A DNA stretch of 42,577 bases from a virus (lineage: Duplodnaviria; Heunggongvirae; Uroviricota; Caudoviricetes): positions 80,351-122,927 of IMG/VR virus record IMGVR_UViG_3300002026_000032, one strand, 5' to 3'. Both the position numbers and the translations under genes were made by a program. Under the pieces are notes generated by a model that saw only the letters and a program-made list of their open reading frames with translations, had not been told where the DNA came from and ran no database searches. Positions 1,563 through 39,765 of this stretch are shown here, piece after piece (positions within the stretch are counted from its first letter, which is position 1; each line of letters begins with the position of its first letter).

Positions 1563-2900
1563 TTACTTCTTTTTGTCTTCATCATCTTCAGCTTTGGTTG
1601 GTTCTTCGAGGTTTCCTGACATGATGACATCTGCATCAGGAAGCTCATTAGCCATTCCTGGTGCCGCAGTATCTGTAGGTAGACCAAGATCAACTTCACC
1701 TTCACCATTATCAGCAACATCAAGTTCGTTTGATGGTTCCTGATCTTCAGCTGCGTCATCGGACTGATCTTCAGTTGCTGGCGCCCCTATGGTGGTGTCA
1801 AGTTCAGTCCCTTTGATTCTTTCAACAAATTTCTGGGATGCCTTGACCACTTCAGCACCATCACCAGTTTTAAGGCGATCACCTTTAGTGGCCAGAAGTT
1901 TATTGGCCATAGACATTGCCATTAGGTTTATACCGGCTCTCTCAGACCCAACATCAGTCACATCATCTTCAGTTTTTGCATCACCAAGAAGCTCCTCAAC
2001 AAATGCATTAACGACATCTCGATATGCAGTTTCTGCATTACCAGTGAGTTCACGGAACTTATGATTTACCACTTCATACACCTCAGATGGTGATTTGTTT
2101 GTTGACTGAAATAAATCAACAGACACATCACCAAGTTTTTCAAGTGCGTCATCCGGCATACTTGTCATCGAATTGATCATATCAACTGCGGTGAGCTTTT
2201 CACCTTCATCTTCCACTTCAGTTTCTTCTGGCTCATCACCTTCAGTCAATACTTTATCATTGAGAAGTTTTCGACCTGTTACAAATTGTGTAGCTCGGTC
2301 TTTAATTGGAGTCAGTGCACTAATATCTTTAGAATCAGCACCAACACGACTTTCGTCATCATGTTCTTCATGTTCATATTCGTCGTCATGATGACGGTCA
2401 AACATTGAATCAGCATCAATCGATGGTTTACCATCTGCATAATATTTCCCACGGATATGATTCATTGCTGAATGGGGATCCATTACTTCACCGTCGATGA
2501 TCACGGTGATTTTTGCACCGGGAGTCAATGATGTCTTCTGTGATAGATTTCTCAATGTGTCAATTTCGGCATCCCTCTGTAGATCAAACATTCTTGGCTC
2601 TAAGCCAGTCAATGATGATTGGAATTTATCACCGCGGCGATCAACCGAAGCAACAGTCAATCCTTTGATGACATCGCGAATGTAATCCATATTTTCATTC
2701 ATGAACTTACGGGTAACACCATGGATTGCGGTGTTGCCAGTCAATACAAGCTCAATCTCATTCTGAGCAATTGACTCAGTCATTAATGATGATTGAGACC
2801 GAACATGTGATACGATGCGTGCCGCAGCTTCAGTAAGTTTATTACTGAACTCATACACACTATCACTACAATTTACTAATGTTGAGAACTTAGTTTTCAC
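1563..2900 (-). CDS. Acidic hypothetical protein (445 aa), probable internal head/core protein
   Basis: Start moved to GTG at 2900, which overlaps the regA end, instead of 2969. Carries LTE-A, MTE-S and LTE-G motifs and a D/E-rich low-complexity C-terminal half. Confidence 0.82.
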   Translation of the reverse strand: MKTKFSTLVNCSDSVYEFSNKLTEAAARIVSHVRSQSSLMTESIAQNEIELVLTGNTAIHGVTRKFMNENMDYIRDVIKGLTVASVDRRGDKFQSSLTGLEPRMFDLQRDAEIDTLRNLSQKTSLTPGAKITVIIDGEVMDPHSAMNHIRGKYYADGKPSIDADSMFDRHHDDEYEHEEHDDESRVGADSKDISALTPIKDRATQFVTGRKLLNDKVLTEGDEPEETEVEDEGEKLTAVDMINSMTSMPDDALEKLGDVSVDLFQSTNKSPSEVYEVVNHKFRELTGNAETAYRDVVNAFVEELLGDAKTEDDVTDVGSERAGINLMAMSMANKLLATKGDRLKTGDGAEVVKASQKFVERIKGTELDTTIGAPATEDQSDDAAEDQEPSNELDVADNGEGEVDLGLPTDTAAPGMANELPDADVIMSGNLEEPTKAEDDEDKKK

Positions 2901-3294
2901 TATTCCGCCCCTCTTTCCATATTTTAAATTCGAGCATATTAAATTTATGTGACACAGTCCATCCTTCATTGACCATTCTGTCGCGTTTCAGGACAAACAC
3001 GAAGTTTGATAAGCTGGATAATTCTGATATGATGCTATCGATTATTCCCCATTGAACCAAACAATGAGCAACTGAGTTTACCCGACCAATATCTTCATTA
3101 CTTAGTTCACCATCTCTACCACGAGTCAGTTTAAATAACTCTTTGAAATGGGCTATAAAATATCTACCATCATACTCTATGATGTATGCGGTTGGATATA
3201 TTATCTTTTGTTCTCTATTCGCAACACCAATCCGCTTCAGAGTCTCAATTGTCGTACTCATTGGATATTGGGTGTTTAATTTAATCTCAATCAT
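2890..3294 (-). CDS. regA: RegA-like translational repressor
   Basis: MIEIKL...ETLKRIGVAN...YFIAHFKELF...ED..R.NSVA..L.QWGII matches T4 RegA (MIEITL...ETLTRMGIAN...YYIVHFKEML...ED..RRDSIAWLLEDWGLI). Confidence 0.9.
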   Translation of the reverse strand: MIEIKLNTQYPMSTTIETLKRIGVANREQKIIYPTAYIIEYDGRYFIAHFKELFKLTRGRDGELSNEDIGRVNSVAHCLVQWGIIDSIISELSSLSNFVFVLKRDRMVNEGWTVSHKFNMLEFKIWKEGRNSEN

Positions 3295-3296
3295 CA

Positions 3297-3815
3297 CTAC
3301 TCCGTATGTGAACTTTTTACTTTGAGAATCATATCCTCATAGGCAAATGTTGCAGCAAATGACACTTCAGATGACTTCCCATACTCAAGTGGAACTCTAG
3401 CCACATTTGTTATTAGTAGGTCTAAGAACTGAAGTTCAACGGTTGGTCTGGATTGATTGTCCAAGATCTCCACAGCAAGTTCAGCAATCTTTAGATCTTT
3501 GGCGTCGAGTTCAAACTTACCTCGGCGAATATTTGCAACCCATCTGTACAAAGCATACCAGTTCTGTAAGTATTCATTCATCTTAAATGTTACCGTTAAT
3601 GGTGACAACCCTGTATTATCCTGCATTGAATATGGTTCATATTCTGTATGCCCACCGAACCGGATTGTCCCATTCGGTAGGTTGATATCAGGCAAATCAA
3701 TATTTGCAACAAACTTTGTCAATAGATCGGTTGCGTTGGTATCCATAAATGGGATATTGGATATCCTAAGTCTCCACCGATCTGAATGAAATGTATTAAG
3801 GCTGAACTTATCCAT
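3297..3815 (-). CDS. gp3: Tail tube terminator / sheath stabiliser, T4 gp3-like
   Basis: Tube-fold pattern LPDINLP...LTVTFKMNEYLQNWYALYRW...ILDNQ...SFAATFAY, resembling gp3 (IPGIRIP...LIVRFIVDEELKSWIGMYEW...ILDNS). Confidence 0.75.
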   Translation of the reverse strand: MDKFSLNTFHSDRWRLRISNIPFMDTNATDLLTKFVANIDLPDINLPNGTIRFGGHTEYEPYSMQDNTGLSPLTVTFKMNEYLQNWYALYRWVANIRRGKFELDAKDLKIAELAVEILDNQSRPTVELQFLDLLITNVARVPLEYGKSSEVSFAATFAYEDMILKVKSSHTE

Positions 3816-4354: not shown

Positions 4355-7300
4355 TCATTGACGGTAACATATTATACCGGTATGCATTGTCCCACCAACT
4401 TTAGTGTTAGGAATACTACTTACTATATTTGCCTCAGTTGCAGCTGGTTCATCATCAACTACAGTATAAATAAATGGATCCGTAAATACAGGTTTTAATG
4501 GTGTATATACAAGAAAATCTTTAACTGAATTAGCTCCGATATAAACCGGAATCCTTATACATTTCTGCACACCAGTAATACTTGGTGTATCATCCAATAC
4601 ATCACCAAAATTGATAATTGGAAATGTATATTTATGTTCCATAAATCCATATGATGAGCAACATGATACCAATTCAATACCATTCATAAACTTGACATGA
4701 TTAAAATCAAGATCATTATCATACACTATATAAATCTCCTCAAGAAGATATGATACAATGTTTGATGATGCCAGGGCTTTTGTTATATTCAATACCATTT
4801 CTACAAATGGTTTAGTGAATTTTATAAGAGCCGTCCCAATGGTGTGATATTCAGTTATTGCTGGCCCGGATTGTGGTGTTATCGTGAATTTACCAATTAT
4901 CGAATTGGTGTCATTTGATGTATCTGTATATCCGATCAAGTCAACTTTCATATCATTTACAGATAACACAGATCTATCCCCAATCAAACCAAACACACCA
5001 TAATTATTACCATTTCCACCAGTCACAAAATGTGATATAGCATGTGATGCTATTGCATAACTATGATCAAATCTATTACTAACCGAACCGATATTAATAT
5101 CTTGTCCATCTATCAATGCAATATCAAATCCTTCAGGATTTTTCAAATCAGTGTGTGATGCATTCCCTGGTAGGAGTGTGTTATGGACCAGTATTGATCC
5201 AACACCATTTGAGTTAATCCCACCATAGAGATCATGAACATACACAGCTCTAATCCCCCTACCCGGAGCACCAATCTGTGATCGATATGATGCCGATGGT
5301 ATTAGGTCTGTATCAAGAGTTGTGTATAAGAAATCAAACTCAGTTGTATTTACTGGTAGCGTACTCGGTATCCCTACTGGTTGAGTCGACCATTTATAAG
5401 TTCCGGTTGTGTATGTTGTTTCTCGTCTCGTCTGAGTGTCTTCATTCAGCATATACCCCAAAAATGCAGTATTGGTCTTTTGTGTATATGTCTCATTAAA
5501 TGGTGAATACTCACGACCAATTGATTGTGCAAATGCAGCTGATGGTACTATGGATGTACCAATGGTTAAATATGAGCCTTGTGATGGTTTTCCGGAAAAT
5601 TTCCCAATACCACCAACAACCTCAGAAACAACAACACCAAGTCTGGAATACCCATAAATACTTTTTGTGTGTAATTGAGTCCATGGATTCACAGAATTCC
5701 CTAAATTCTTTGCACTAGTATACCCCGTGTAATCAAATCCACTATCTTCAACAGAACCATCACCATTCAATATATTAATCGCATTAAGTTCTGTTGATGT
5801 CCCCGGTATTAAATCACCAAACATATAAATTGGTGTTGACACCCCAGAAGTATTCTTTGAAAATAAAGCATGAACAAATGCCGCTTTAATTGGCTGAGTG
5901 CCTGTACCGAATTGTATACCAACCTGTTTGTAATCATCAGTTGATCTTTGTCGGCTGACTTGGGAATCAACATACTTAATTACATTTTGAAATCCTTCTA
6001 ATTTTTCAACAACCAAGTTGCTGATCCAACTTGAGTTTGTGTATTGGAAATCAGAATTTAATGTACCAACATATATCGATCTGATTTTGGCGACCTGTGT
6101 TCCAATATCATATTGTTCATTTGTTGATGGGGTTAATGATGCAGACAGCATAACATCACCATTGGGGTTCCCATCAAACACATACCCACCCAAATAACCG
6201 GTATTCAATGATTTGGTGTATGATGTTCTAAATCTCTCTCTGCGGGATCCTAAATCGATTGTTGTTGATGGTGCTGTACCTTCATCGACACCAGCAGCCG
6301 TACCAATTTGATTAAATGTCAGAGGAATTATACTTTTGTTGAAAACGAACCGCCCTGCTATATCTGGGTCACAGAAGAACTCATAATCATTTGCTGCGTT
6401 TATTGTCTGCCAATACTTAATCACATCATTTGGATTGGTATCATCAATTCTCGATGCACACCCGATGATATCAGTTCTGGCCCCATAATCATAACCATAT
6501 TGTTCGGCCACCGAATTTACCAATGTAAACCATTCATCATAATGAGTGTCATCAGATACTCCAGTTAGCCCAACAACTGAGACATGATGCTGTGCTAATG
6601 TAACTCCACCCTCAGGACTTGCATTATCAGTACCAATAAATATCCGCTGATATGCATGCAAAGAATCCATGGATCCATCATCGTTTGCACCGGTTGTGTA
6701 TGACCAAAATGCAAACTCATTCCCATAAAATTTAGCAGTGTTAGTTACACCATCAATGTCATTTGCTTGGAAGTCAATCACAATATCGATGATGATTTCA
6801 TTGTTTGATGCTCCAGTTGATTCGTATTCAATTGGATTGATCATGTAGACCGATCCAACATAGTATACCCGACCGTCATCACTGGTAGCAAACATCGCGA
6901 TTTTGTTGAATTTGAATGATCCTAACTGTTCGACAGCTGATATTGCACAGGTGAATACACCGACCGTTCGGTAATCTGGAGTTGAGTTATCACTGATATT
7001 GATATTTGCAGTTCGGTAATTCACATTACTAAGCAAAACTTGTTCAGCGCTGACATAGACCTTATTTGAATTCGGCTCGAAAATGCTCGATAGTTGTGCT
7101 GCGTATGAAGTATGTGGTGTGATTGTATTGAATGTGGCGCCTGATATTGATGTCAATGGATATGATCCTATGTCGCCGGAATAATCGGTATTTATGACAG
7201 TTGTTGACATGAGCTGAGATAGTTCAGTTGTTGTCTTAAATGAAGCGACCAACGGAAGATCGCCCAATAAATTCACTCTGACATCAGGCCGTTGATATGA

Positions 7301-31955: not shown

Positions 31956-32765
31956 TCATGCTATAATGATATCGAAGTATTCACTCTCACCCTGAATGGT
32001 CTCAACTACCTTCTCATATTCAGACTGATAACTGGAGAATATCTCGTCACCACCCATTTGAGATCCATCAGGCATTGCGACTTTTATCTTACGGAGTCGT
32101 TTTCCCCATGCAACACCAGCCATAGCCACAGCAAGTTCTCTAAAATTCTGAAGATTATATAAATCATCAAGTTTCAAATTATTGAAAGCTGATAAAACAC
32201 CGGTAACTGACATTCGAGGGGTTGGTGATATTTTCAGTACCTTTTTACCGGGGATGTATCGAACATTGAATGTCTTTCCAAATGTTCTACGGATGTCACC
32301 GAGATACATCATCGCGGTTTCATAGTCCTGAAGTTGCATTCCCTGACCAAAGCCACCACCACCTGTGTATCCACCCATTGACATTCCACCCATACCACCC
32401 ATTGAATTCATCAATGCATTTGTTGGGCTGAACATGGTAGCAAATTCACCAGATGAATTGTCCGCGGTATTACTAAATGAGTACACATAATCAATATCAA
32501 CATCGAGAAGATTTCCATGAGAATCGCGAAGATCTTTAATTGGGATTTCTGATTCACCACCAGGGAATGTTACCACGAAATAATCTTGGTAATATCCTTC
32601 ACCACCAGCATATCTAATGTATTTATGTCGAGCATTATGTATCTGCTGTTTAACTGTTTCCGGATACAATTCTACATTTATTTCCGGGAATCCGAGTTCT
32701 CGGAAAACGTAGTCTGTCATTTCATCAATATTGTGTATCTCATCATAAACTTTAAACTGATCCAT
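31956..32765 (-). CDS. gp13: Neck protein, gp13-like
   Basis: DYVFRELGFPEINVEL...QQIHNA...WGKRLRK...MPDG..MGG..I motifs. Confidence 0.87.
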   Translation of the reverse strand: MDQFKVYDEIHNIDEMTDYVFRELGFPEINVELYPETVKQQIHNARHKYIRYAGGEGYYQDYFVVTFPGGESEIPIKDLRDSHGNLLDVDIDYVYSFSNTADNSSGEFATMFSPTNALMNSMGGMGGMSMGGYTGGGGFGQGMQLQDYETAMMYLGDIRRTFGKTFNVRYIPGKKVLKISPTPRMSVTGVLSAFNNLKLDDLYNLQNFRELAVAMAGVAWGKRLRKIKVAMPDGSQMGGDEIFSSYQSEYEKVVETIQGESEYFDIIIA

Positions 32766-32785: not shown

Positions 32786-32793
32786 TATTTATA
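32786..32793 (-). promoter_or_regulatory. T4 late promoter (TATAAATA)
   Basis: Perfect consensus upstream of gp13. Confidence 0.8.
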
Positions 32794-32801
32794 GCCACAT
32801 C

Positions 32802-32829
32802 AAAACAAAAGGGAATCTTTCGATTCCCT
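32802..32829 (-). terminator. Intrinsic terminator after the endonuclease gene
   Basis: Minus strand AGGGAATC-GAAA-GATTCCCT then TTTGTTTT. Confidence 0.85.
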
Positions 32830-32834
32830 GTATG

Positions 32835-34508
32835 TTATTTGATGTATTCAAACTTCAGATTTCCTGAATCATAGATCCTCAGAAATCCACGCTCCTTCAT
32901 TATCTCTCGCTCAGTCTTTGCCTTATCATCTGGTGTTACTGCGATGACATTCTTCCTGTATTTGAATCGATGCTCACGCTTTCTATCCCGCTTATCGAAG
33001 TAATAATAACCAGGATCGGTGACTTTTATCAATTTGAACCCGGTTGATAGATAAGCATTCTTATGAAAGTTGGTCCATGATCGATCGGCATATGTAATCA
33101 ATCGATCCGGTTTACAATCACCCATGAACTTCTTTATCATCTTTGATAATCCACCAACAACTGTATAACCCAATTTAGTGGAAAATCGATACAGCTCATA
33201 ACCAGCACCAGCTTCATTCATACTTACACGAGTTTTTCCGAATGTTGCGACTGATATCAATTCACCGTTGTGGTATAAGCCATAGTTGAATGACCCCGGA
33301 GCTCCAGACCCTTGTATATGATTTTTTGTTGTAAACTTCGATGCATCCGAATTTGAGATTTGTTTCAACTTGGTTTTTCTGGCACCAATCTTTATCGATG
33401 TTTGTAATAGTGATTTCAATCGACTTTCAACTATTCTTCGATTATACAACCAATCATCCTCAAATATTTGAATTAGATGTATCCCAACACTTTCACATTT
33501 ATTGAGTTTATTGATATGGTAATCTTTATCAAGATTTTCATCGCTATGCCAAAATAATCCATTAAATTCAAATGCTATTGATAAATCTGGTAAATATATG
33601 TCAAGTTCTAATGGTTTAATTGCGGTTCGATCGTTACGTTTTATACACCCGTCATACAATGACTGTATCATCTCAAATAACTCATGCTCTTGCATACTTT
33701 TACATTTTGGACAACCGGTATTTCCATATAGGAATGATGCAGCCTTAACATTGAAATCACCATGATACTTACAAGTTACTGTCACATCATCAACCATAGA
33801 TTTATATGCTGAGTTTTTATAGCTATATCTATCATTAGTGTGTATGGTTTCGGCGCGATCAATGAATTCGGTGGTTGTTAATAATTTTTGTTCATTGTTA
33901 CATACTGGACAGATATTACCAGCAAGATGATTCATTGGGTATACATCAAAATCCCCATGTGATTTACATGTTATCGTGACTTTCTGTTTCATATCAACAA
34001 CCACAGTTCTGGGATATTCAAATCTATCACCAAAAACTTCTACAGATCTTTTTATGAAATCTGTCGTATAAACTTTATTGGATTGATTATACTGATCTAA
34101 GTTGTGCTTCTTCACTTCAATGGCACATTTTTGACATCCACATTTTCCATGGATGTGAGTTGCAACCCTCTGTGTAAATTCACCATGATCCGGACAAATT
34201 ATAGTCATTATGTCTTCTGTTGATTTGGGTACAAATTCAACATACTCATATTTGTCACCATGGATAGCTCTAGACTTATTGACAATTTGAGAAAATGATA
34301 ATCGTTTATTTTCACCAACTTTCTCAGCTCGACATTTAGGACATCCACCACCACCAGTTCTAATATAATCCTCAACGCGTGGTTTGAAGGTCATGTCATG
34401 TTTGGTGCATCGAATATCTATTTTAATTTTTGTCCCGAACGATTCAGGTGATACTGAATAGTCTCGATCATCTCTACCAACTCTTAACCCAAGTTCGTCT
34501 CTTGTCAT
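32835..34508 (-). CDS. Free-standing Hef-like homing endonuclease (557 aa): Zn-ribbon repeats, PD-(D/E)xK-like nuclease and a GNAT-like C-terminal domain
   Basis: Four C..H/CxxC repeats (GCPKC, GCQKC, ICPVC, GCPKC). ELDIYLPDLSIAFEFNGLFWHS nuclease motif. NHIQG...YELYRF...VVGG.SK...TYADRSW. Start reassigned to ATG 34508 (GGAG RBS); the track start 34571 lies inside the terminator. Confidence 0.85.
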   Translation of the reverse strand: MTRDELGLRVGRDDRDYSVSPESFGTKIKIDIRCTKHDMTFKPRVEDYIRTGGGGCPKCRAEKVGENKRLSFSQIVNKSRAIHGDKYEYVEFVPKSTEDIMTIICPDHGEFTQRVATHIHGKCGCQKCAIEVKKHNLDQYNQSNKVYTTDFIKRSVEVFGDRFEYPRTVVVDMKQKVTITCKSHGDFDVYPMNHLAGNICPVCNNEQKLLTTTEFIDRAETIHTNDRYSYKNSAYKSMVDDVTVTCKYHGDFNVKAASFLYGNTGCPKCKSMQEHELFEMIQSLYDGCIKRNDRTAIKPLELDIYLPDLSIAFEFNGLFWHSDENLDKDYHINKLNKCESVGIHLIQIFEDDWLYNRRIVESRLKSLLQTSIKIGARKTKLKQISNSDASKFTTKNHIQGSGAPGSFNYGLYHNGELISVATFGKTRVSMNEAGAGYELYRFSTKLGYTVVGGLSKMIKKFMGDCKPDRLITYADRSWTNFHKNAYLSTGFKLIKVTDPGYYYFDKRDRKREHRFKYRKNVIAVTPDDKAKTEREIMKERGFLRIYDSGNLKFEYIK

Positions 34509-34542
34509 TTGACACTCCAATAATAAAAATGAATTCATGATC

Positions 34543-34571
34543 AATATAAAACAAAAAGGCTGGAGTGTCAA
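34543..34571 (-). promoter_or_regulatory. Sigma70-type promoter for the endonuclease
   Basis: -35 TTGACA (34571-34566, perfect), 17-nt spacer, -10 TATATT (34548-34543, 5/6). Confidence 0.72.
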
Positions 34572-34582
34572 CCCCAGCCTTT
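34548..34582 (-). terminator. Intrinsic terminator of the major capsid transcript
   Basis: Minus strand AAAGGCTGG...CCAGCCTTT stem then TTGTTTT, about 25 nt after the gp23 stop. Confidence 0.85.
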
Positions 34583-34607: not shown

Positions 34608-36152
34608 TTAAGATCCGGTTCCAGGAAGAACGTTAACCATTGATCCAGGAATGATCGCATCAACATTCTCATAACGAATCATACGATAGTAACGACCAGC
34701 ACCTAAGAGGTTATGAGTAATTGAGTAACGGCTCATAACTCCGATGCGTGGGCTGAAATCGGCTGGGTTAATAGCCCGGTTTGTGAGAGCTGTAATAAAC
34801 GGTGAATAGATCACACCAGCTTCAGACAATCCAGCACCTTTATAACCAACGAGGGCATATGATTCAGTCGCATGACGGTCACGATAACAATCAATGGTTC
34901 CATTGAGCTTACCAATGTACGCAACAGATACGGATGGGTTTACTCCACCTTTATACTGTACGAACTGGTGACCAGCAGCCTGAAGTACAGTTGCGATATC
35001 CTGGGATACGATCACGAAGTTACCACCGTTACCACGACCAGTTGTAAGTGCAAGCACGTTCGCCTGAGACATGATAGTTGCAATAACAGTCATGAAGATT
35101 TCACCATTCCAACGACCGATTGCAGTACCAGAAGGCGCTGTAGTTGGGTCGAGGTCGATTGGTGAAAGCTGAGCTCCACCCATGTTTGGTGACATATCTT
35201 CGGATACGAACTTAACAACATCTACGATTTCACGGTCAAGCTGTGCATTCATCTCATAGTTGAGGGAATTAAGCATTTCCTTTTCGATGTTGAGACCCTG
35301 GTGCATAGACTGAATGTCCTGTGCAGATTCCAGAGAGTAGCTAGCACCCATTTTACGACCCTGAGCTCGGATAGCTCTCTGGGCAAGTTTGAATTCAAGT
35401 TCAGTCATGTGACCGGTTGCAGTTCCGGGGATACCGGAACCGAAACGAGCATCACGCATTACAAGACCCTCAGTATGTTTCAGAGGAGCACCCTGAGATG
35501 ATACTGTAAGAGCAGTAATGTTACCAACTACACCAACCGCAGCATTTGCAGCAACGATGGCAGCTTTAAGTTTAGTTTCATCAACTTTACCCTGTGCTGT
35601 GTAGATGTCAATTTTACGACCGTTTGCATCAATACCATTAAACTCACCAGCACCGATTACACCGGTATTGTCGTAAGCATAGATAACTTTCACGGTACCA
35701 GACTGATGTTGGAACTGAGGAACATTATCCCATCCAGCTTCAATATCAGTTCCCTGATAAACCATACGCATAGCAAACGCTACACCATAAGGCTGTTGCA
35801 TAGGCTGAACGGCCACACATTTGTGAGCGAACAGGTCTGGGAATGATCGACGCATAAGAGCAAGTGCAACTGGGCGGAATACGTTCGCCGGGTCGTTTGC
35901 ATATACGTTATCAGAACCCTGATATGCCATGTTATTTGTTCCGGTGTTAGCCCCTGGAGCCGCACCAAAGTTAGAAATTCCAGCATCCCAAGCTTCGGTC
36001 AACACACCAGCGCGACCAGAAAGGTCACGGGTTGCAATGTTTTCCATAAGCTGAGCCATCGAATCGCGGATGGTTTCATCTTTGATTGATGCTACTGAAA
36101 AGTCGCCAGCATCTTTTGATGCCCATTGTTCGAGAATAAGATTCTTTTTCAC
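34608..36152 (-). CDS. gp23: Major capsid protein, T4 gp23-like
   Basis: FRPVALALMRRSFPDL.A...VAVQPM..P.G..FAMR, RKMGASYSLE.AQDIQSMH, SPRIGVMSRY. GTG start with GGAGG RBS. Propeptide cleavage motif VLTE-A. Confidence 0.97.
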   Translation of the reverse strand: MKKNLILEQWASKDAGDFSVASIKDETIRDSMAQLMENIATRDLSGRAGVLTEAWDAGISNFGAAPGANTGTNNMAYQGSDNVYANDPANVFRPVALALMRRSFPDLFAHKCVAVQPMQQPYGVAFAMRMVYQGTDIEAGWDNVPQFQHQSGTVKVIYAYDNTGVIGAGEFNGIDANGRKIDIYTAQGKVDETKLKAAIVAANAAVGVVGNITALTVSSQGAPLKHTEGLVMRDARFGSGIPGTATGHMTELEFKLAQRAIRAQGRKMGASYSLESAQDIQSMHQGLNIEKEMLNSLNYEMNAQLDREIVDVVKFVSEDMSPNMGGAQLSPIDLDPTTAPSGTAIGRWNGEIFMTVIATIMSQANVLALTTGRGNGGNFVIVSQDIATVLQAAGHQFVQYKGGVNPSVSVAYIGKLNGTIDCYRDRHATESYALVGYKGAGLSEAGVIYSPFITALTNRAINPADFSPRIGVMSRYSITHNLLGAGRYYRMIRYENVDAIIPGSMVNVLPGTGS

Positions 36153-37099: not shown

Positions 37100-37107
37100 T
37101 ATTTATA
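37100..37107 (-). promoter_or_regulatory. T4 late promoter (TATAAATA)
   Basis: Perfect consensus upstream of the scaffold and capsid genes. Confidence 0.8.
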
Positions 37108-37805: not shown

Positions 37806-37949
37806 CTACCCCTTGTTTATTTTATCAAGGATAATGACTTTCTTTTCAGACACCTGCTCCATGATCTTCTGTGCTGCAATAGTCTCGATCTTTTCTTTGA
37901 TTGTCACCAAATCATTTGACACTACGCAATCGATAAACGATTTATCCAT
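37806..37949 (-). CDS. Small prohead core protein, gp67-like (47 aa), missed by the ORF track
   Basis: Late promoter, AAGGAG RBS and ATG, giving MDKSFIDCVVSNDLVTIKEKIETIAAQKIMEQVSEKKVIILDKINKG*. Sits between portal and protease, as T4 gp67/68 do. Confidence 0.72.
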   Translation of the reverse strand: MDKSFIDCVVSNDLVTIKEKIETIAAQKIMEQVSEKKVIILDKINKG

Positions 37950-37969
37950 TAAAATCTCCTTGTTACTCA

Positions 37970-37977
37970 TATTTATA
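37970..37977 (-). promoter_or_regulatory. T4 late promoter (TATAAATA)
   Basis: Perfect consensus immediately after the portal stop. Confidence 0.8.
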
Positions 37978-37980
37978 AAA

Positions 37981-39765
37981 CTACAACTGAATTATATCTT
38001 CAGCCCCAGGTAATGCTTGTCCGGCAGTCTGAACTCCCATTCCACCACCAGCACCCATGCCCATATCCATTCCACCCATACCCATATCTTGGCCACCCAT
38101 TCCGGCGCCCATACCCATACCTTGACCGAATTGCTCACCACCAACATCAAATCCACCAACTCCTGCATCCATACCCATCCCCATATCCTGCTGTGGGGCT
38201 GCGGCTTGGTCTTTAGCATTCTGTTTCATGCTGGCTTTCATCTCTTCAATCAGTTCCATATTTCGGTCATACAATTCAACCGGCATTTTGTAATATTCTT
38301 TTAAAACAATCTCAGGTGCAAACAACCCGTTGGGATTTTCTTTTGTGAACATCATCTGTGTATATTGATTCAATATTGTAGTTCTCTTTTCCAAGATCTC
38401 CAATTCACGGATCATTTGGAATTCATTCTGTCGATTGAATCGAACTGTGAATAACTTCGTATCAATGAACTCATCATTCAATCCCCGGACTTCAAGAACT
38501 CGGATAAATGTATTGATCAAAAGATATCGGAATCGGTTTTTGTTTCTATCTAAGAATCTGGACCAATTGAGCTCTTCTTGTGGGATCTCCCCTGGGTTCC
38601 CATATGTCGCAACTTTTGTTGTTGGATCAATCCATCTGGATGATGGAATATTCCCAGCTCGATATAAATTCCCTCGAATGATATTTACATCATTTAAGTC
38701 ACCAAGATTCATGTCACCATCAACCGTAGAAACTGATGATCCCTCACTGCCTTCAACTTTGGCTAGCCATATGTCTTCTTGCATTGATTGGTGGTTTCTT
38801 GATGAATCCATTGCACCAGTAGTTGGATCGAATTTAATTTCTTTCTTGTATTTCTCAATAACCGAATTGAGGAATTGCATACCTCGTTTAGCACCGCCCT
38901 TTGGAACTGCAATATTCCATAAGCGTCTTTGTGGTGCTCGAATGATTCGATATGTAACCAATGCATCGATAAGGTGTCTATACATGTTGTATGGTCGAAC
39001 ACATCTCTCTAGATATCCACGGATATCGGCTTTGGTTTCGCCATAGTCTCCATAGTTCACATAGATCATATCATCTACATCAACCAATTCAACAGTGCCT
39101 TTTTTAAAGTATTCTTCGTGATTTAATGATGAGAATGCACCATTGGTTTGGCGAACCTGATCGGTTACATCACCAACGGCATATTTTACAATCATCTCAC
39201 CCTTGTATACAGGGAGGCAATTATATGCAGGTATCACTCGGAAGTCAATAATATCAGTTTTGTTTCCAGTCTTATCATATTCGTAAATAAGCTTTATGAA
39301 TATTTCAGCTTCGATGATGAATTTCTTGTACAGATCCCATGCAATCTCATCGAAATTAAACATCTCCTGATACATGTAATCCCAAGCTTCGATCATGTAT
39401 TCTTTTACATAGCTTGGAACATGAGGTTTAATATCTAAATGTGCCACATGTCCATCGGAGTCTGGAACCATGGAATCATCACATAGCATATCAACCATCC
39501 ATCCCATTTCAGATGAGTATGCCATCTCCATATACTTGCGGATACGGAATGCTTTGTTCATCAGATATTGCTCGAAATAGATTCCCAGCATTTGAACACT
39601 TGAATAATCTTCAGGTATTGATGTGAGTTCTACATCTCGATATCCGAATCGTTCTCTAGCGTGATGGTTCTCTGTTTCTTCTGCACCAAAATAATCTTTG
39701 ATTGATTTGGATCCTGGTAATCTCCCGAAGAAATTTGATATGCTTGATTCATTAAGAATGTTCAT
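37981..39765 (-). CDS. gp20: Portal protein, gp20-like, with a Gly/Met-rich tail
   Basis: DALVTYRIIRAPQRRLWNIAV, MQEDIWL..EG..GS.VST..G...LGDL.DV, RFRYL motifs. Confidence 0.95.
   Translation of the reverse strand: MNILNESSISNFFGRLPGSKSIKDYFGAEETENHHARERFGYRDVELTSIPEDYSSVQMLGIYFEQYLMNKAFRIRKYMEMAYSSEMGWMVDMLCDDSMVPDSDGHVAHLDIKPHVPSYVKEYMIEAWDYMYQEMFNFDEIAWDLYKKFIIEAEIFIKLIYEYDKTGNKTDIIDFRVIPAYNCLPVYKGEMIVKYAVGDVTDQVRQTNGAFSSLNHEEYFKKGTVELVDVDDMIYVNYGDYGETKADIRGYLERCVRPYNMYRHLIDALVTYRIIRAPQRRLWNIAVPKGGAKRGMQFLNSVIEKYKKEIKFDPTTGAMDSSRNHQSMQEDIWLAKVEGSEGSSVSTVDGDMNLGDLNDVNIIRGNLYRAGNIPSSRWIDPTTKVATYGNPGEIPQEELNWSRFLDRNKNRFRYLLINTFIRVLEVRGLNDEFIDTKLFTVRFNRQNEFQMIRELEILEKRTTILNQYTQMMFTKENPNGLFAPEIVLKEYYKMPVELYDRNMELIEEMKASMKQNAKDQAAAPQQDMGMGMDAGVGGFDVGGEQFGQGMGMGAGMGGQDMGMGGMDMGMGAGGGMGVQTAGQALPGAEDIIQL

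Follow-up and report, generated by a model that had tools for sequence, protein, structure and literature searches.

The control of phage homing endonuclease genes is known from I-TevI, I-TevII, I-TevIII, segB and Aeh1 mobE, where a stable local hairpin buries the ribosome-binding site (RBS) and the embedded promoter is a late one, with the motif TATAAATA (PMC2988022). Promoters specific to endonuclease genes in T4 are either middle or late, never early, and the free-standing endonuclease gene segD, which intrinsic terminators flank on either side, is located between the capsid genes 23 and 24 (PMC2988022). Here we describe the element in front of a free-standing homing endonuclease gene in the window, which is the whole 42,577-nucleotide (nt) stretch analysed and represents the 42.6 kb at the end of a viral contig of 122,927 bp from a metagenomic, IMG/VR-type record (IMGVR_UViG_3300002026_000032). 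This element is found directly behind the gene for a gp23-like major capsid protein and is, in our view, probably the overlap of two ordinary signals, a terminator and a promoter, at the border between a late capsid operon and an inserted selfish gene.

Predicted terminator and candidate early promoter

The features of the element, given as window positions on the minus strand, are the following:

34555-34582, minus strand: hairpin of terminator T1, from a terminator scan, with a 12-bp stem, a 4-nt loop and 6 G-C pairs; T-run at 34557-34549
34566-34571, minus strand: -35 hexamer TTGACA, within the T1 loop plus its closing pair; one of the TTGACW-N17/18-TATATT sites
34543-34548, minus strand: -10 hexamer TATATT, directly after the T-run; same -10 in the other class members
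34561-34571, minus strand: upstream arm TTGACACTCCA, comprising the T1 loop and a portion of the 3' arm
34509-34519, minus strand: downstream arm TGGAGTGTCAA, the exact reverse complement of TTGACACTCCA; GGAG at 34518-34515, a 6-nt spacer, then ATG at 34508-34506
32835-34508, minus strand: free-standing homing endonuclease gene, 557 amino acids (aa); PHROG 559 and 3339, Pfam DUF723 and DUF4379

The hairpin, the TTGACA-17-TATATT arrangement, the 11-nt complement and the GGAG with its adjoining ATG all lie where a first-pass annotation of the sequence had placed them. That annotation interpreted them as a single regulatory switch, in which a terminator, a sigma70 promoter and an anti-Shine-Dalgarno arm would be combined.

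The stem of T1 is followed by the U-tract TTTTTGTTTT, in the arrangement of a G+C-rich stem-loop plus U-tract that defines intrinsic terminators, and T1 starts 25 nt past the capsid stop codon, that is, just downstream of the stop, as in the relatives. The hairpin alone has a folding energy of -18.4 kcal/mol, with pair probabilities of 0.83-1.0, and the fold of the region reaches a z-score of -3.3, better than 200 out of 200 shuffles. A hairpin with a T-run is likewise present 3' of the capsid stop in all four relatives examined (L001, L002, L020 and L021, with 45-71% capsid identity), starting within ~25-30 nt of the stop in L001, L002 and L020 and with a tail like that of T1 in L002 and L020, the stem sequences being different among all capsid-locus relatives. 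These results bear out the first-pass reading of T1 as the capsid terminator. T1 is, as read from its sequence, a strong intrinsic terminator of the late scaffold-capsid transcript, its efficiency being a prediction, and because of its counterparts in the four relatives it most likely represents the ordinary, ancestral terminator of the capsid transcription unit. For the same reason, the opposite assignment, in which the terminator behind the endonuclease gene (T2) would be the ancestral capsid terminator and T1 would be borne by the endonuclease cassette, was dropped.

Sequence searches with the element found few counterparts. An 18-mer of the terminator gave no match in the viral contigs searched, Rfam returned sub-threshold chance matches only, and a 19-mer containing the 11-mer was found at 10 metagenome loci, a number close to that expected by chance, none of them otherwise similar to the window; one of these, L004, has a terminator-like hairpin of similar sequence. 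As for the relatives, L002, with the capsid gene (70% identity), and L014, with an endonuclease gene and a gp13-like gene, were recovered from one sample and share a 9-nt overlap at their ends; the two very probably join and are referred to below as L002+L014.

The sequence TTGACA-17-TATATT, previously proposed as a sigma70 promoter embedded in the terminator, matches the sigma70 promoter at 11 of 12 positions, with a spacing within the range of 16-18 nt, and is the top promoter-like site in the surrounding 7 kb. Judging from the position of the -10, transcription is predicted to start at ~34538-34535. The class to which this site belongs, TTGACW-N17/18-TATATT, counts four members in the genome vs a mean of 0.29 in dinucleotide-preserving shuffles (a 14-fold enrichment), and none of 200 shuffles reaches four. 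The other three exact members and two near-members are found in the non-structural part of the genome, in short spacers that lead directly into gene starts, all members being upstream of such starts; the genes behind them are ORFans, an acetyltransferase gene and an NrdD-like gene, those behind the three exact members being ORFans and the NrdD-like gene. The endonuclease site and these class members have in common a -10 TATATT with G as the next base in most cases, and a T-rich segment before a Shine-Dalgarno of the GGAG type, whereas late genes carry TATAAATA instead of the TTGACW class. Because the class is enriched, is placed before gene starts and shares its -10 and leader features, TTGACA-17-TATATT is likely to be a real promoter of the early, host-polymerase class of this phage, with predicted activity and early timing, which is in line with the first-pass proposal.

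Some points weigh against the overlap of two ordinary signals. The -10 may partly derive from the T-rich tail of the terminator, the corresponding place being TATAAT in L002 and TTTATAG in L020. L002 lacks the -35, and less weight is therefore given to the -10 alone; since the -10 overlaps a T/A-rich tail that relatives also have, the case for the promoter depends mainly on the -35 within the loop. In addition, the use and timing of the promoter are deduced from the sequence of a metagenomic contig, and an early promoter at this place departs from the best-studied T4 model, because the endonuclease promoters of T4 are never early.

The same tail is the starting point of a different and rather unlikely explanation, where the promoter match would be fortuitous or inactive, TATATT would simply be terminator tail, and the endonuclease gene would be a promoter-less cassette expressed only via read-through of T1. 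Such cassettes do exist, as T4 has seven promoter-less free-standing endonuclease cassettes, with several seg and mob genes (PMC2988022). Moreover, the tail TTTTGTTT(T)ATA recurs in L002 and L020 with no -35, the -10 sits in alignment A1 where L001 has a late promoter, and L002+L014 presents, on inspection, just a weak candidate promoter (9/12). A fortuitous match would nonetheless have to place TTGACA at exactly 17 nt from the -10, whereas the chance of a TTGACW at 17 or 18 nt is estimated at ~1e-3, and it would leave aside both the enrichment of a class that elsewhere occurs only before gene starts and the -10 hexamer and leader common to its members. T1 also looks strong, so read-through alone would yield little expression.

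The overlap of a promoter with a hairpin has parallels elsewhere in the genome. Four early-class promoters outside the window, at 43434, 45781, 75030 and 61261 of G000:C1 (43434/45781 correspond to ~5935/8282 of L017, 75030 to ~2031 of L019 and 61261 to ~1762 of L018), lead straight into a 9-12-bp hairpin plus T-run. These four hairpins have energies of -17 to -23 kcal/mol and either start 0-1 nt past the -10 or overlap it, and RNA starting ~7 nt past the -10 would miss most of the 5' arm of the hairpin. They look like terminators for upstream transcription that the RNA of the overlapping promoter itself would escape and, because four further early-class promoters run into a hairpin and T-run in this way, the overlap of promoter and terminator-like hairpin looks like a habit of this genome. 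Separately, and likewise outside the window, three tandem copies of a unit with TTTACA-16-TATATT are found at ~37900-38080 of G000:C1 (~400-580 of L017), and could be a promoter-like repeat array or iterons. At the locus itself, an antisense promoter from the plus-strand TTGACA at 34509 was considered and rejected on inspection, as there is no -10 at 16-18 nt.

The 11-nt complement of the ribosome-binding site

The first-pass annotation went one step further. On read-through RNA, the loop and 3' arm of T1 would re-pair with the RBS and silence the endonuclease gene, while the promoter RNA would lack the arm and be translated. We regard this switch as very unlikely, and can hardly credit the capsid terminator with doubling as an anti-Shine-Dalgarno, be it in cis or in trans, with an early-on, late-off logic that would be the inverse of that of I-TevI. 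A weaker form of the same proposal would require only that the hairpin loop contacts the spacer, in cis or from the 3' end of the abundant capsid mRNA.

The geometry of the locus fits the proposal well: the complement is exact over 11 nt and spans the Shine-Dalgarno up to the AUG, and RNA from the predicted start at ~34536, which is downstream of the arm at 34571-34561, would indeed be without this arm, as had been claimed. The logic has a precedent in I-TevI, segB and Aeh1 mobE (PMC2988022), and hairpins are found in 15 of 16 leaders of free-standing endonuclease genes at marine phage loci (PMC2677866). Folding with ViennaRNA, whose model leaves out pseudoknots, argues nevertheless against the re-pairing. 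Since formation of the 11-bp stem would engage the T1 loop together with the 3' arm, the stem and the T1 hairpin are mutually exclusive, and the stem is the weaker of the two when each is folded alone (-14.6 vs -18.4 kcal/mol, with the same ranking at 15, 25 and 37 °C). In context, the best fold with the stem has -32.1 kcal/mol vs -39.2 kcal/mol for the minimum-energy fold, that is, 7.1 kcal/mol worse, and all eleven pairs of the stem have a probability of ~1e-6. The T1 hairpin is, moreover, made ~40 nt earlier than the downstream arm, and, whichever 3' end was tried, it is retained in the minimum-energy fold.

The folding of both predicted mRNAs, from which a difference between the two transcripts had been expected, gave similar costs for opening the segment from Shine-Dalgarno to AUG, with 4.2-4.8 kcal/mol in promoter RNA (start 34533-34540) and 3.7-5.9 kcal/mol in read-through RNAs beginning 100-490 nt upstream. 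The longer transcript has no stable RBS-pairing structure of the kind described for I-TevI, segB and mobE. As for the contact of the loop alone with the 6-nt spacer, a free duplex of this kind would have just -4.7 kcal/mol before any steric cost, which makes a pseudoknot-like contact between loop and spacer marginal at best.

The relatives point in the same direction. The terminator loop of L002+L014 is TTTTT, with neither the TTGACA loop nor the 11-nt complement, and its complementarity to the ribosome-binding zone reaches 5 nt at most, so that the pairing is not kept in this one relative, whose endonuclease is 42% identical; the longest complement in three other endonuclease-family loci is 6-8 nt. 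The pair probability, the energy deficit and the lack of the complement in L002+L014 all speak against the claimed refolding. A further expectation, namely that relatives without the endonuclease gene would also be without the 11-mer, does hold for the endonuclease-free L001, but it lends little weight to the switch because the hairpin stem sequences differ among all relatives. Another RBS-sequestering structure, seen in the minimum-energy fold of L002+L014 with the RBS weakly paired to a segment around a candidate -35, was rejected, as opening costs of 3.3 vs 3.75-6.1 kcal/mol are too close.

How much the exact complement means by itself depends on how common such repeats are in this genome. 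The count of distinct perfect inverted repeats (11 nt or longer, within 100 nt) is 16, vs 4.4 ± 1.9 in shuffles, 9 of them with loops of at least 20 nt, vs 3.6 ± 1.8, and repeats of such length are therefore common here. The pair 34519-34509/34571-34561 is the sole long-loop inverted repeat of the genome that touches an RBS, a point in favour of the switch, most of the others being intragenic and accidental in appearance. The chance of finding one such RBS complement per genome is estimated, over ~170 genes and given how loosely an interesting match is defined, at a few per cent to ~20 per cent, which is borderline. Two points have to be added here to those already counted against the overlap of two ordinary signals: an exact 11-nt complement at this single locus has an estimated chance of ~1e-4, and therefore chance is not a comfortable explanation either, and the contact between loop and spacer may form as a pseudoknot outside the ViennaRNA model. 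Even so, the 11-nt complement is real and most likely without a regulatory role. As a side observation outside the window, GGCGCCACCGG and its complement, at 25531-25541/25637-25647 of G000:C1, form a perfect 11-nt inverted repeat rich in G+C around a minus-strand gene start, in a genome of 40% G+C.

The arms have also been considered at the DNA level, as inverted half-sites bound by a repressor of the promoter, for which the zinc-ribbon-rich endonuclease itself would be the candidate. By analogy, this would follow the established autorepression of I-TevI at an operator overlapping its promoter (PMC2988022), and the arms, located on the -35 and at ~+20 to +30, have their centres 52 bp apart, or approximately five helical turns, in front of a gene whose protein has four predicted DNA-binding zinc ribbons. 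We hold such half-sites to be extremely unlikely, as no direct evidence points to them, the arms are not conserved in L002+L014, there are no further copies of the 11-mer near the locus, and the 19-mer that contains it matched only unrelated metagenome sequences.

The endonuclease gene and its surroundings

The start of the endonuclease gene at ATG 34508 is right, since its nearest homologue (P0127) aligns end to end from residue 1, with the first residues in common. The N-terminal part of the protein consists of four zinc-ribbon repeats, with Cys and His residues invariant across 50 homologues. A profile built on the nuclease domain (~272-372) matches the catalytic domain of I-Bth0305I (PDB 3r3p, E 1.8e-5), which is also the best Foldseek match of the predicted fold of this domain (TM 0.73-0.76, root-mean-square deviation 2.7 Å), with Vsr next, and the E, D, E and H residues of the domain are invariant across the same number of homologues. 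Profile and predicted fold both place the domain in the Vsr-like, EDxHD (I-Bth0305I) family, and mark the 557-aa protein as a genuine free-standing homing endonuclease of this type. The C-terminal domain (~370-557) has a Mom/GNAT fold, with Mu Mom (8bv8) as its top structural match, and is conserved across the endonuclease family. This family gathers more than 2,000 matches, and no homologue of the endonuclease above 42% identity was found among 5.8 billion proteins.

The other features of the locus needed below are the following:

34608-36152, minus strand: gp23-like major capsid protein gene, 514 aa; Pfam Gp23, E 7.6e-65; stop at 34610-34608
37107-37100, minus strand: TATAAATA as late-promoter motif, upstream of the 296-aa gene, itself followed by the capsid gene
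32810-32829, minus strand: terminator T2 after the endonuclease gene, with an 8-bp stem and then a T-run
32786-32793, minus strand: TATAAATA as T4-type late promoter motif, upstream of the gp13-like gene and within the 12-mer TATAAATAGTAG
31956-32765, minus strand: gp13-like head-tail adaptor gene, 56% identity to the L014 gene with Pfam Phage_T4_gp13; PHROG 211
2890-3297, minus strand: RegA-type translational repressor gene, inside the structural module; PF01818, E 2.9e-18

The contig is ~55% complete according to CheckV and has a G+C content of 39.7%. Nearly all genes of the window are on the minus strand, where a T4-like structural module is found in the order portal, prohead protease, 296-aa gene, gp23-like capsid, 557-aa gene, gp13-like adaptor and gp15-like. 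The capsid protein is less than 30% identical to cyanophage capsid proteins, and the phage is only distant kin of the known T4-like phages; neither a megablast of the locus against phage records nor a search of viral contigs with capsid peptide patterns gave any match. In the relative L001, the capsid gene (439-2787) is called as 782 aa, residues 1-273 of which form an N-terminal extension that is not present in the capsid of the window, and which could be a fusion with an upstream scaffold-like gene or a gene-calling artefact.

The T4 late-promoter motif at 37107, upstream of the 296-aa gene, makes the scaffold-capsid unit a late transcription unit, with the capsid gene as its last one. The genome holds 23 copies of TATAAATA, vs 8.6 ± 2.9 in shuffles. 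Sixteen belong to the minus strand, which carries most of the genes, and several copies precede gene starts by 17-63 nt. As the endonuclease gene is followed by T2 and by TATAAATAGTAG, a 12-mer that in L001 comes directly after the capsid terminator, the layout of the locus is capsid-T1-endonuclease-T2-late promoter-gp13-like, and the endonuclease gene occupies a slot between the ancestral terminator T1 and the late promoter of the gp13-like gene.

The relatives show this slot in different states. L001 has no endonuclease gene between its capsid and gp13 genes and L014 does have one at this place, as expected of a mobile gene between conserved ones, and the gp13-like gene adjoins the capsid gene in endonuclease-free relatives. 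In L020, a more distant relative, the slot holds a different gene of 167 aa (4508-5011). Members of the endonuclease family found in unrelated contigs adjoin capsid, terminase or sheath genes: L013 (226-4375) carries a tandem pair of them between terminase and sheath genes, and in L016 (2501-4507) one comes right after a capsid gene of the Phage_cap_E type and the terminator of this gene. In L002+L014, the 62 nt after the capsid stop (L002 2457-2535) recur after the endonuclease stop (L014 1703-1785) with ~90% identity, in a direct repeat with an alignment mean of 84% that flanks the endonuclease gene and takes in the post-capsid spacer, the terminator and the start of the late promoter. The hairpins of the two copies differ at stem positions, both being still perfect stems, and the repeat stops partway through the late-promoter motif, of which the second copy alone has an intact version.

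If two ordinary signals do overlap here, the late transcripts that start from the 37107 promoter would end at T1. The sigma70-type early promoter would take its -35 from the loop of T1 and its -10 from the bases just past the T-run, and the endonuclease mRNA would start at ~34536, with a leader of ~28 nt, and end at T2, just before the own late promoter of the gp13-like gene. The endonuclease gene would be kept from late capsid transcription by termination, and would probably be expressed early from its own promoter; since termination would keep late transcripts out, its late silencing needs no RNA switch. RegA is a known T4 route for shutting off early mRNAs, and the RegA-type repressor of this phage may, by analogy, provide a further shut-off acting on the endonuclease leader. 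A search of the genome for the AsiA family (PF09010) gave no match, in a record that is ~55% complete, and gave none in the control genomes either.

Comparison with known systems

Taken together, the element is best described from its sequence as a real terminator overlapped by a probable early promoter before a homing endonuclease gene, with an anti-Shine-Dalgarno function being unlikely. A terminator that hides an RBS would be new if true, but the evidence presented here speaks against it. The overlap of terminator and promoter represents a tidy variant of known phage gene control that leaves current understanding unchanged and, if the early-type promoter is active, the case would depart from what has been described in T4 (PMC2988022).

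With the I-TevI group, this locus shares a selfish endonuclease gene with a promoter of its own inside a longer host transcription unit, and this promoter is placed so that its RNA would miss the upstream segment complementary to the RBS. Contrary to that group, the promoter is here of the sigma70, early type, the complementary segment is locked in a stronger terminator hairpin (with a stem occupancy of ~1e-6), and the stable RBS-burying structure that defines the group is not found.

The nuclease fold and profile relate the protein to the Vsr-like (EDxHD) enzymes, such as I-Bth0305I (PDB 3R3P) and those encoded by marine phage genes (PMC2677866). Like these marine genes, it is encoded by a free-standing gene between conserved phage genes, with control elements in its leader (PMC2677866), whereas the leader in the window has neither a local hairpin nor TATAAATA. 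Different from other Vsr-like enzymes, the protein also has four zinc-ribbon repeats at its N-terminus and a Mom/GNAT-like domain at its C-terminus.

The position of the gene resembles that of segD. The latter is a GIY-YIG gene, antisense to its neighbours and without its own promoter, whereas the gene in the window is I-Bth0305I/Vsr-like, is in sense orientation and has a strong candidate promoter. Both are located directly behind a major capsid gene, bracketed by terminators and insulated from late capsid transcription, and the locus in the window illustrates neatly that a selfish endonuclease gene can be accommodated within an essential late operon while leaving it undisturbed, with a terminator before the gene, a terminator after it and the next late promoter intact.

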